From Kofleriaceae bacterium (lineage in GTDB: Bacteria > Myxococcota_A > Polyangia > Haliangiales > Haliangiaceae): a DNA stretch of 35,549 nt. Numbering within the stretch: the first letter of the stretch is position 1; every line of letters starts with the position of its first letter. Shown here in pieces: positions 16,857 through 18,759 of the stretch. The stretch spans positions 1 to 35,549 of the forward strand of contig DATMCI010000364.1 in assembly GCA_035558535.1 (NCBI GenBank), read 5' to 3'. The notes under the pieces are model-generated. The model had not been told where the DNA came from, ran no database searches, and saw nothing but the letters and a program-made list of their open reading frames with translations. The translations under genes and the position numbers were made by a program.

Positions 16857-17531
16857 CCAACCCCTCCTCCTCCTCAGCCCACTCCTTGTTCCAGACTGAC
16901 AGATATTTCAAGTAACTCCCTGTCAGGGAACGCTCCGCTCTGTATCACATTGCAATCGCCGGTTGCAACGCTCGTGTCCAACGGAATCATTTGGGTGCGG
17001 ATCTTCGGACCAACGAAACCAACTCATTCCGCGTGCTTGGATCAGCATCCATCCGCGCGAGCATGTCGTGGTCGGCAACTACCGCTCGACGATCTGCGGC
17101 ACGCGTGCCCGAATCATTTCGGGCGAGATGGCCGCACGTACGGCACCACGGCGGAGCGACCGCTCGACGCGACTTGAGCTGCTCGCATCGTCGGCCGCGC
17201 AACTCGGCGAAAGATTTCGCACCGGCTGCGATGCTGTACGATTGTTCTCGTCCGGCGAGAGCGCGCGTGGTCCGTGCGGTACGGGAGAGCACGACTCGGG
17301 GTGGTGTCGAATGTGGTCCGCACGGTCCGCACGGTCCGCACAGCTTCGCAGAGCCGAGCCGCGGGGTTGTCCGGCCGGACATTGCGGGTGGCGGGCTCCG
17401 GAAGCGAAGCAGAACGGGAGCCGTTGATATGGAATTCTTGATACTAATTCTCCTGGCCACGCGGAATTCTGCGTACTAAACGATATCGGCGAAATCGAAT
17501 GCTCGACTCCTCGCACCCTTGAACGACTCAC

Positions 17532-17735
17532 ATGGGCCGCCCGCGCAAGACACACGAGCAGATGACGTTGACGTTCCGGACGCGCGGCGGGCGGCGACCG
17601 GGCGCTGGGCGGCCGCCCCGCGGGCCGCGCTCGAGCGAGCGCCACAAGGCGCGGCCGGCGCACACCTGCCGGCACCTGGTCCACGTCACGACGCGGGTGG
17701 TCGATGACGTCGCGAACCTCCGCCACCGCGTGCTC
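17532..17735 (+). pseudogene. Truncated 5' fragment of the IS200-like Y1 transposase gene
   Basis: The ORF 17532..17822 shares MGRPRKTHEQMT(L/M)TFRTRGGRRPGAGRPPRGPRSSERHKARP...HVTTRVVDDVANLRHR with the full copy, then diverges into unrelated sequence. It lacks the HuH and Tyr motifs. Confidence 0.75.
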
Positions 17736-18024
17736 GTCTCCGCTCTCGGAAGAGGCCTGGGCGCCGTGCGTGGCGTGAATGCGTGTGGTCAGTGCGGGTG
17801 CGGGAGAGCACGACTTCGGTAGTGTCGAATGGGCCGCGCCGAGCAGCGAAGCCGCGAGGTTGTCCGGCCGGACACTGGGGCGCCTGGAGCGCAGCAGACG
17901 CCGAAGACGGGATCTGCCCATACAGACTTCTTGATATCAATTCTGCTGGCCAACCTGGATTCTGCGTACTAAACGATATCGGCGAAATCGAATGCGCCGC
18001 TCCTTGTACCTTTGAAAGACTCCC

Positions 18025-18759
18025 ATGGGCCGTCCGCGCAAGACACACGAGCAGATGACGATGACGTTCCGGACGCGCGGCGGGCGGCGACCGGGCGCTG
18101 GGCGGCCGCCCCGTGGGCCGCGCTCGAGCGAGCGCCACAAGGCGCGGCCGACGCACAACTGCCGGCACCCAGTCCACGTCACGACGCGCGTGGTCGATGA
18201 CGTCGCGAACCTCCGCCACCGCGACTTCTATCTGCAGCTGCGCGAGGCCACGATCGTGACCGCGCGGCGCGAGGACTTCCGCATCGTCCAGATGTCCATC
18301 CAGCGCAATCATCTACACCTGATCGTCGAGGCGAACGACAAGGCGGCGCTGTCGCGGGGGATGCAAGGCTTCTCGATTTCTGCGGCGAAGCGGGTGAACG
18401 CGGCCATCACTGCGCGCACGGGTGTCCGGCGCACCGGCCGCGTCATCGCCGATCGGTTCCATGCGCGGGCGCTCACGTCGCCGCGCGCGGTCCGCCACGC
18501 GCTGGCGTATTGCCTTAACAATTGGAGAAGGCACGGCGAGGACCGCTCGGGGCTCCCGCGGACGTGGAAGGTGGATCCGTTCTCGAGTGGCCCGCTGTTC
18601 TTTGGCTGGCAGGAGCTCGAAGGCTCGCCGGTGCTGTGGCCGCTGCGCGAGACGTACCTGCCGCTCATCGTGCTGCGCCCGCGAACCTGGCTGCTCGCGC
18701 AGGGCTGGCAGGCGCATCACCCGCTGATCTCGGTGCGCGAGGTTCCGGGACGCGCCTGA
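18025..18759 (+). CDS. IS200/IS605-family Y1 (HuH) transposase-like protein (COG1943 / REP-associated type)
   Basis: 244 aa. HuH motif NHLHLIVEAND. Conserved catalytic-Tyr helix AYCLNNW. N-terminal RGGRRPGAGRPP...PVHVTTRV, which is characteristic of this family in myxobacteria and deltaproteobacteria. Confidence 0.8.
   Translation: MGRPRKTHEQMTMTFRTRGGRRPGAGRPPRGPRSSERHKARPTHNCRHPVHVTTRVVDDVANLRHRDFYLQLREATIVTARREDFRIVQMSIQRNHLHLIVEANDKAALSRGMQGFSISAAKRVNAAITARTGVRRTGRVIADRFHARALTSPRAVRHALAYCLNNWRRHGEDRSGLPRTWKVDPFSSGPLFFGWQELEGSPVLWPLRETYLPLIVLRPRTWLLAQGWQAHHPLISVREVPGRA

Follow-up and report, generated by a model that had tools for sequence, protein, structure and literature searches.

A gene-duplication remnant beside a Y1 HUH gene of a diverged, multi-copy family in a Kofleriaceae bacterium

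Among the transposases of the Y1 HUH type, those of IS200 (subclass 1.1) carry the motif Y-x3-Q and their copies within a genome share a mean identity of 99.4%, and class 2, which comprises TnpA-REP and its relatives, is defined by the motifs [ND]-H-u-H and Y-x3-N-P (Quentin et al., 2018, PMC6006769). Two subclasses of class 2 are also without repetitive extragenic palindromes (REPs): subclass 2.3 from Chromatiales and Alteromonadales, which is multi-copy (mean 3.9, copies of about 75% identity) and contains proteins of about 325 residues with insertions in the core, and the TIRYT-like subclass 2.1, which has a median length of 238 residues, is common in delta-proteobacteria and shows a C-terminal helix-turn-helix (HTH) and the sequence YIELNP or Y[IV]HLNP (Quentin et al., 2018, PMC6006769). 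Here we have investigated a Y1 HUH locus in a stretch of 35,549 nucleotides (nt), referred to as the window, which is a contig of a metagenome-assembled genome (MAG) deposited at NCBI as third-party annotation (TPA) and assigned to a Kofleriaceae bacterium (Myxococcota, Haliangiales). The locus contains an intact gene on the plus strand (18025–18759) encoding a protein of 244 residues of the RAYT/TnpA-REP-like class (HWO26444.1, annotated by NCBI as 'transposase'), which is preceded by a second copy of its upstream region and of the first part of its coding sequence (CDS). A preliminary description, made from the sequence alone, had interpreted this arrangement as the duplicated left end of an IS200/IS605-like element. 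Our analysis reveals that the locus is instead the remnant of a gene duplication. With a probability of about one half, we favor the view that a tandem paralogue consisting of promoter region and CDS was truncated by a microhomology-mediated deletion and that its decaying remnant persists beside the functional gene.

The repeat is evident in a self-comparison of the window, where positions 17254–17730 align head to tail with positions 17772–18223 at 80.7% identity over 486 columns (blastn, E 1e-131), and the extended identity between both segments that had been described is thus present. The reported identity of more than 90% at an offset of 493 nt applies to the proximal part only, where a repeat finder detects a gapless core of 300 nt (17414–17713 and 17907–18206, 90% identity, spacing 493), whereas the distal part is offset by 518–519 nt. 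The change of the offset from 518 to 493 is a consequence of the microsatellite (GGTCCGCAC)x3 at 17315–17341 (period 9, 3.0 copies and 100% matches in Tandem Repeats Finder, TRF), which had been correctly recognized as a feature of copy A and which faces an alignment gap in copy B. In the same way, the intervals initially proposed for the repeat (17262–17735 and 17795–18228) cover its location but differ in length (474 versus 434 nt), so that the offset is not constant and the boundaries shift by 4–23 nt. Identity between the copies varies by segment, amounting to 88% in a distal upstream block, 79% in the middle, 81% in the promoter-proximal block and 95.5% in the first 200 nt of the CDS.

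Copy A (17254–17731, plus strand), which we regard as a truncated and decaying duplicate based on the blastn alignment, the segment identities and the assignment of copy B as its closest paralogue, consists of the distal block, the promoter-proximal block (17406–17531, plus strand) and codons 1–66. The promoter-proximal block was recognized with a profile of this block and the 5' CDS (nhmmer, E 2.8e-105); it includes a core of 37 nt that is identical in both copies (17466–17502 and 17959–17995) and its promoter core matches at 17465–17499. In the upstream region of copy B (17772–18024, plus strand), profile matches define a distal block (17772–17831), a proximal block (about 17894–18024) and a conserved core (17955–17992). 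The palindrome that had been noted in each copy is found at 17368–17381 and 17861–17874; the 14-nt sequence TGTCCGGCCGGACA has these two matches and none elsewhere in the window or in unrelated family loci, and is thus private to this locus. The coding part of copy A (17532–17729) encodes residues 1–66 with 93.9% amino acid identity to B before it diverges. The preliminary description was thus correct in assigning a duplicated 5' CDS to a transposase of the COG1943/PF01797 Y1 HUH type and in considering only the distal copy, with its sequences HLHLIV and AYCLNNW, as intact, but the duplicated part comprises about 66 instead of 68 codons. The resulting open reading frame (ORF A, 17532–17822, plus strand, 96 residues) continues for 30 unrelated codons, and the G+C content at third codon positions (GC3) drops from 94% in the 66 family codons to 65% in this tail. 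Together with three changes that are derived in the A lineage (M13L, N45T and P49L, where Pro 49 is invariant and position 45 is either Asp or Asn in the family), this suggests that ORF A is probably a pseudogene and that copy A would be non-functional.

The nature of the rearrangement is illustrated in the junction between the two copies. The 9-mer GCCACCGCG, located within 17722–17731, represents the stretch in which the homology of the CDS ends, shared with codons 64–67 (18215–18223 in B), and at the same time the first stretch of sequence that is typical for the upstream region of the family, as defined by the alignment to the related locus L009, with a microhomology of 8–9 nt (GCC[A]CCGCG). 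It is followed by a non-duplicated stretch of 40 nt (segment J, 17732–17771, plus strand), which has no counterpart in copy A and which alignments and profile matches identify as homologous to sequence located just 5' of the distal block at other loci. Positions 17722–17765 align with L009 4188–4230, immediately upstream of the distal block (GCC-CCGCGCGCTCGTCTCCGCTCTCGGAAGAGGCC), with a score that is reached in 0 of 300 shuffles; the same homology is weaker in L018 and L011, and a profile of the far-upstream region matches the window at 17727–17757 (nhmmer). This conserved upstream region runs about 250 nt further to the left in L009, L011 and both copies of L018, and in the window it breaks off at about 17722–17731, where the CDS homology of copy A ends. 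By these alignments, the breakpoint is a microhomology inside a conserved non-coding region and neither the terminus of an element nor a palindrome, and the boundary of an element, if there is any, would thus be located elsewhere. As a separate observation, the far-upstream region (about 250 nt; L018:3436–3723 and 4480–4775, L009:3943–4235, L011:4301–4570) is non-coding, with no GC3 signal of coding potential, its identity between paralogues roughly equals that of the CDS, and it has no counterpart in the window, L001 and L007. Two further models of the junction were rejected. A nested insertion would leave the rest of copy A behind, but residues 67–244 were found nowhere else in the window (tblastn, E <= 10), and this model would thus need an extra deletion. 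Similarly, an ancient duplication shared within the clade was not supported since, in L001, L009, L011 and L018, the search for decayed remains of a 5' CDS ahead of the distal block provided scores that were no better than those of shuffled sequences.

The relationship of the encoded protein to the described systems is reflected in its sequence and predicted fold. The intact gene (GC3 87%) scores above the Pfam gathering threshold for Y1_Tnp (28.4 bits versus 23), which together with the Y1 HUH fold and the compact unit of a single gene and its upstream region is a property shared with IS200, IS608 and ISDra2. Of the more specific models, NCBIfam REP_Tyr_transpos matches with 40.9 bits (E 1.7e-10, below its cut-off of 80) and transpos_IS200 (NF033573) with 18.7 bits (below its cut-off of 55). 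The former scores above the latter in 25/25 family members tested, although no reported score reaches a cut-off. An AlphaFold model based on an alignment of 25 sequences is confident in core residues 50–165 only (predicted local distance difference test, pLDDT, 71–90), where it shows the topology beta-alpha-beta-beta-alpha-beta-alpha. Its top match in Foldseek is the structure 4ER8 of E. coli TnpA-REP in complex with a REP hairpin, followed by ISDra2, IS200 and IS608, whose TnpA proteins match with E values of 2e-4 to 3e-3. When solved structures were instead searched by sequence, the single sequence retrieved spurious designed TIM barrels and the profile did not give any match.

In the 25 sequences, the catalytic motifs His 96 and His 98 (N-H-L-H), Tyr 162 and Asn 166 (Y-x3-N-W) are invariant, as is the sequence DPFSS, which corresponds to the Ser-Ser tail motif of subclasses 2.1, 2.2 and 2.6 (Quentin et al., 2018, PMC6006769). 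The N-H-u-H form, the Asn at position Y+4, the spacing of 66 residues between HuH motif and Tyr, the fold and the divergence of copies within a genome are all features of the RAYT/TnpA-REP proteins (Quentin et al., 2018, PMC6006769; Bertels et al., 2017, PMC5581495). In contrast to the Y-x3-N-P and W[EQ] motifs of class 2, position Y+5 is Trp, Tyr or Phe instead of Pro and (I/V)(A/G)DRFHAR takes the place of the W[EQ] motif. The family further differs from RAYTs in an Arg/Gly-rich N-terminal extension of 48 residues and a conserved C-terminal region of 75 residues, neither of which has a match in Pfam, in the absence of REP or REPIN flanks in the window and in the flanks of related loci up to 5 kb, and in the presence of many copies per genome compared to 1.3–1.8 in RAYT groups. 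By description, it resembles subclass 2.3 as a class 2-like, multi-copy and diverged family without REPs, but lacks the form of about 325 residues with core insertions, and it resembles subclass 2.1 in length, but lacks the C-terminal HTH and the sequence YIELNP or Y[IV]HLNP. Taken together, these features place the protein, a Y1 HUH member of COG1943/PF01797, near the RAYT/TnpA-REP class as a class-2-like representative, and the family matches the definition of neither IS200 nor canonical RAYTs. The presence of Y-x3-N instead of Y-x3-Q, the superior match to REP_Tyr_transpos and the closest structural relative 4ER8 thus contradict the assignment as IS200/IS605-like element.

If the locus were the end of an insertion sequence (IS), or if a second element had transposed into a first one, as required by the initial proposal, comparison with other copies should define the termini of the element. 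We find the homology among about 90 related loci to end at the stop codon or within about 15 nt of it, with the length of the C-terminus varying among family members. The search for a hairpin at the right end, downstream of 18759, remained without result: the region 18750–18895 folds on both strands with z-scores of +0.6 to +0.7 relative to shuffled sequences, and DNA folds of the upstream and downstream flanks are no stabler than shuffled sequence. Nothing conserved and no matching palindrome is found downstream of the stop codon at any locus. On the upstream side, conservation begins abruptly at a palindrome, ACTGCC-N6-GGCAGT, which constitutes the first part of an architecture that is found in nearly all loci down to about 50% amino acid identity. 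The palindrome is directly followed by a -35-like hexamer (TAGATA or TTGACA), a spacer of 17–18 nt, an extended -10 element (TGnTAGATT) and an almost invariant sequence, CCGCCGAATCAAG, at the expected start of transcription, about 45–65 nt before the start codon. This architecture is seen in loci L016–L087, with counterparts in the window at 17955–17992 and 17465–17499. In a profile search covering flanks of up to 5 kb, the palindrome was found once per locus, and neither downstream of the gene nor dispersed in the flanks. Its halves do not show clean covariation, for which reason it fits a binding site for a protein on double-stranded DNA better than a single-strand hairpin. We thus assume the upstream block to be a putative promoter of the sigma-70 type with an operator, and such a shared arrangement of promoter and operator would make the paralogues look like one regulon. 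The interpretation of the palindrome as a LexA box, considered with respect to the Myxococcus LexA consensus, was discarded since the motif does not fit, and scans of the region against Rfam (E <= 1) and for consensus promoters and terminators gave no matches. In one subgroup, an inverted copy of the motif at the transcription start, CACTTGATTCGGCGGAGAA, is located about 90 nt upstream of the forward copy (L028:4825–4854, L045:4821–4841 and L053:4819–4838, minus); both copies bracket the promoter, which suggests a protein-binding site.

The closest clade of the window displays a diverged version of this promoter, ATTCTGCGTACTAAACGATATCGGCGAAATC, and an additional distal block about 190–265 nt upstream of the start codon. 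The proximal block is common to the window, L001, L007, L009, L011 and L018, and profile matches to the distal block were obtained in the window (twice), L001, L009, L011 and L018 (twice). The palindrome GTCCGGCCGGAC is located in the variable spacer between both blocks, in the interior of each copy and not at a breakpoint, and it is absent from every other family locus. Dispersed copies of the distal-block palindrome or of TGTCCGGCCGGACA were not found in the window. What had been taken for a left end carrying a palindrome is thus a putative promoter region found throughout the family, combined with a private palindrome in its interior.

The distribution of the family provides additional evidence on its mode of propagation. 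A word-indexed protein search identified 2034 relatives of about 243 residues, of which the best 120 are 68–95% identical, and a scan of metagenome contigs detected 80 family loci, at least 13 of them on the largest contigs of the MAG's own sample. At least five members of one 90% cluster are found in the same MAG series (HWO20388.1, HWO24870.1, HWO25387.1, HWO25701.1 and HWO26444.1), and two copies reside on a single contig of 37 kb. Scans of genome collections contributed little, the first being without matches and the second providing four distant or partial loci. The flanking genes differ at every locus and the copies are diverged (66–96% amino acid identity). Pairs with at least 98% nt identity share their flanks and thus represent the same locus in different samples, and the identity of copies in different contexts does not exceed 93.5% at the nt level, or 91% within one sample. 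Copies of more than 95% nt identity in different contexts were not found among the family loci compared. Judged by these identities, the pattern is that of old, diverged paralogues and not of an active insertion sequence. Some copies look inactivated: in L011 (5001–5741) an in-frame deletion of 21 nt removes the sequence HVTTRVV of strand beta-1, in L081 the gene is interrupted, with the protein match split between residues 161 and 164, and in L084 an insertion of about 160 nt is found together with a short duplication.

It is the Y1 HUH fold with its structural similarity to the IS200, IS608 and ISDra2 transposases, the multi-copy character of the family in unrelated contexts and the conserved palindrome upstream of most members that would speak for a duplicated or invaded IS end. 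In contrast, the Tyr motif is of the class 2 type, left- and right-end hairpins, near-identical copies and a tnpB partner are all missing, the junction is located inside the conserved upstream region, residues 67–244 of copy A are lost from the window and, as described below, the breakpoints at two other loci with partial copies differ from the one observed here. Neither the termini that define IS200/IS605 elements nor the flanking REPs of canonical RAYTs are thus present. We consider the IS model as largely refuted and a transposition-based origin of the repeat as very improbable.

If the locus did not originate from the duplication of a transposon end, it has to be asked in which order its duplication and truncation have proceeded. 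Copies A and B are mutually closest among all paralogues (96% in the CDS and 78% in the promoter block, compared to at most 93% and 75% for others). Their differences are unevenly distributed, with 9/200 in the CDS and 44/246 in the non-coding part (Fisher p = 7.5e-6), and the CDS fragment is thus four times less diverged. At the rate of the non-coding part, about 20 changes would be expected in the 198 nt of CDS in copy A, whereas polarization with outgroups gives about 5. The ratio of 96/78 for CDS and promoter resembles that of intact pairs of paralogues (93/70, 91/69 and 91/77), which together with the few changes in the CDS suggests that the coding part of copy A remained under constraint during most of the period after the split and that its truncation is a late event. 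The sequence of events would thus have started with the head-to-tail duplication of the whole gene unit, including promoter region and CDS, followed by a long period in which both copies were under purifying selection. A microhomology-mediated deletion would then have joined codon 66/67 of copy A to a position about 290 nt upstream of the start codon of B, by recombination of the CDS motif GCCACCGCG with its upstream counterpart GCC(C)CCGCG, and the remnant would subsequently have decayed by the replacement of the invariant proline (P49L), the emergence of the 9-nt microsatellite and indels. The head-to-tail arrangement, the junction microhomology of 8–9 nt and the decay of the truncated copy are familiar from truncated tandem paralogues in general, although the uneven divergence of coding and non-coding parts in a remnant is unusual.

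A possible, albeit doubtful alternative is a duplication that was partial from the start, where GCCACCGCG in the CDS and a similar motif about 490 nt upstream would have served as sites of replication slippage or unequal exchange, which generated a unit of 492 nt comprising J, the upstream blocks and 66 codons. Copy A would have been a pseudogene ever since, and its low CDS divergence would result from later conversion by B or from faster mutation in the repeat-prone non-coding part. This scenario would be the simplest, as a single step in a genome rich in tandem repeats, and it accounts for the coincidence of the unit length (493) with the distance between the two sites of microhomology and for the lack of full-length tandem pairs at other loci. 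It does not explain why only about 5 instead of about 20 changes have accumulated in the CDS fragment of a supposedly neutral copy, it requires a counterpart of J (J') in copy A at a position where there is none, and a long identical tract as mark of a recent conversion is missing, with the longest run extending over 52 nt. Conversely, several observations weigh against a full duplication with subsequent deletion. A direct tandem pair of two full-length genes was not found among about 90 loci, gene conversion from B to A could also account for the low divergence of the CDS, and the junction from A through J to B rests on one metagenome assembly. Moreover, since copy A is without detectable counterpart of J, with neither J' nor the far-upstream region found 5' of it by profile search, both scenarios need a further deletion.

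The window is not the only locus of its clade with a partial copy, since an extra copy of the promoter region is found beside the gene in three of the six loci of this clade (the window, L018 and L007). Outside of the window, a tandem copy of a gene's own upstream region was detected in one of 41 loci with at least 1 kb of upstream sequence, and a degenerate promoter block in one of 40 loci with at least 1 kb of downstream sequence, and both cases, L018 and L007, originate from the same sample. In L018, the duplicated unit (3420–4060 and 4480–5055, period about 1045 nt, about 85% identity) comprises the upstream region and about 11–14 codons with a frameshift, and a 33-nt minisatellite (4107–4369, 6–7 copies) is located between the units. 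In L007, a promoter-proximal block (6317–6419) is located 555 nt after the stop codon and before a convergent gene of 660 residues without driving an ORF, and it is probably all that remains of a former tandem copy. The breakpoints differ in all three loci, which favors recurrent tandem duplications that subsequently decayed over a cut made by the HUH enzyme at a specific site. The mechanism that had been suggested in the preliminary description, an aberrant single-strand excision or slippage at a hairpin, does not conform with these breakpoints nor with the microhomology at the junction. Products of slippage are abundant in the window (50 TRF rows in 35.5 kb), and minisatellites are found in the upstream regions of L007, L009, L011 and L018. 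In L009, about 14 tandem units of 32–40 nt (3508–4021) precede the family gene. Their unit, CGCGCGTGGATGTGAACGCG, is similar to the imperfect palindrome in the distal block, CGCGTTGGCGTGAACGCG, and the same relative region contains arrays of 13 and 31 nt in L007 and a threefold 54-nt array in L011.

The recurrence of such partial 5' copies could alternatively indicate that they are not accidental. In this case, the Y1 HUH enzyme might introduce nicks into single-stranded DNA at, or close to, the conserved palindrome of its own promoter or the motif at the transcription start, which could seed one-ended copy events or template switches in a process that differs from the 'peel and paste' mechanism of IS200. 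Equally, ORF A, with its intact promoter and Arg-rich N-terminus, may have been retained as a modulator acting in trans, which would account for the fourfold better conservation of its CDS relative to the non-coding part. We regard a functional origin of the copies by either route as rather far-fetched.

Since the window originates from a metagenome, the tandem arrangement could also be only apparent if an assembler had joined two strain variants or paralogous loci. The contig was obtained in a MEGAHIT-style assembly (k = 141, as implied by the k141 in its name), many paralogues of the family are present in the sample and the sole other retrievable contig across the junction, found in ENA with identical coordinates, is the same assembly. 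Look-ups with the Y1 protein and an antisense ORF of 280 residues did not recover the junction between A and B in a second assembly, but provided only this ENA contig. However, the two copies differ about every 20 nt and their longest common exact run of 52 nt is far below the k of 141, so that the final k leaves no ambiguity in the assembly graph. An independent Logan contig (L094) matches positions 10619–17495 at 100% and joins A-specific sequence to the left flank. Logan contigs are assembled with k = 31, and L094 terminates 30 nt, and thus exactly k-1, into the 37-nt exact repeat at 17466–17502, as expected if the reads contain both copies and the 37-mer is thus preceded by two different contexts. 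Finally, copies A and B are mutually closest and share a private palindrome, which would be unlikely for two random paralogues. A chimeric assembly of the region is thus unlikely, and an artefact as the source of the repeat appears highly improbable.

The divergent neighbor of the locus (14619–16856, minus strand) encodes a DUF4157/eCIS_core protein of 745 residues, for which NCBI assigns a later start (708 residues). Its initial designation as DUF4157-OTU gene was confirmed for the first domain, whereas an OTU match was not obtained in Pfam even at E <= 10, and by eye its C-terminal stretch (PDGMCMLGAL … HYHA) resembles an OTU-type Cys/His protease. In an approach to an orthologous site that is empty or contains a single copy, the closest homologues of this protein were found to be 57–65% identical and to reside in unrelated contexts. 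Other neighbors include a convergent protein of 155 residues of unknown function and an XRE-type HTH protein, and profiles of defence systems in PADLOC matched only with generic HTH models on a neighbor of 135 residues. The low-GC patch that had been taken as mark of an island boundary exists, with a GC content of 0.62–0.70 over 15000–20000, but is not distinctive since the same values are found at 21500–27500. Alternative ORFs on either strand of 16857–18024 have a GC3 of 61–68%, compared to 82–89% for real genes in this region, and the antisense gene of 280 residues annotated in ENA (17079–17921, minus strand, GC3 68%) is by this measure spurious. Elsewhere in the window, we observed tandem repeats with periods of 93, 186 and 279 nt that run off its end (34658–35549) and encode Cys- and Asp-rich units (…CDDGN…NGDGCD…) similar to those at L011:7453–8305, a dispersed direct repeat of about 110 nt with 90% identity (20952–21060 and 24426–24537, detected in the self-comparison when L088 was aligned with the window), a dense cluster of micro- and minisatellites with periods of 3–27 nt (11586–11971) and a 44-nt tandem repeat of 2.6 copies (32872–33002).

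Collectively, our results imply that the locus should neither be annotated as IS200/IS605 element nor be used as marker of an island boundary. The duplication itself is ordinary, as the probably pseudogenized tandem remnant of one paralogue. Its wider value lies in the underlying family, a Kofleriaceae-centred group of Y1 HUH proteins with more than 2000 database entries and many diverged copies per genome, which is of interest to the field of RAYT/TnpA-REP proteins even though the locus does not reveal its function. A strongly conserved putative promoter, an adjacent palindrome and an invariant region at the start of the transcript accompany each of the copies and, as far as can be judged from sequence, this pattern suggests that the family may constitute a co-regulated set of domesticated single-strand DNA nucleases.

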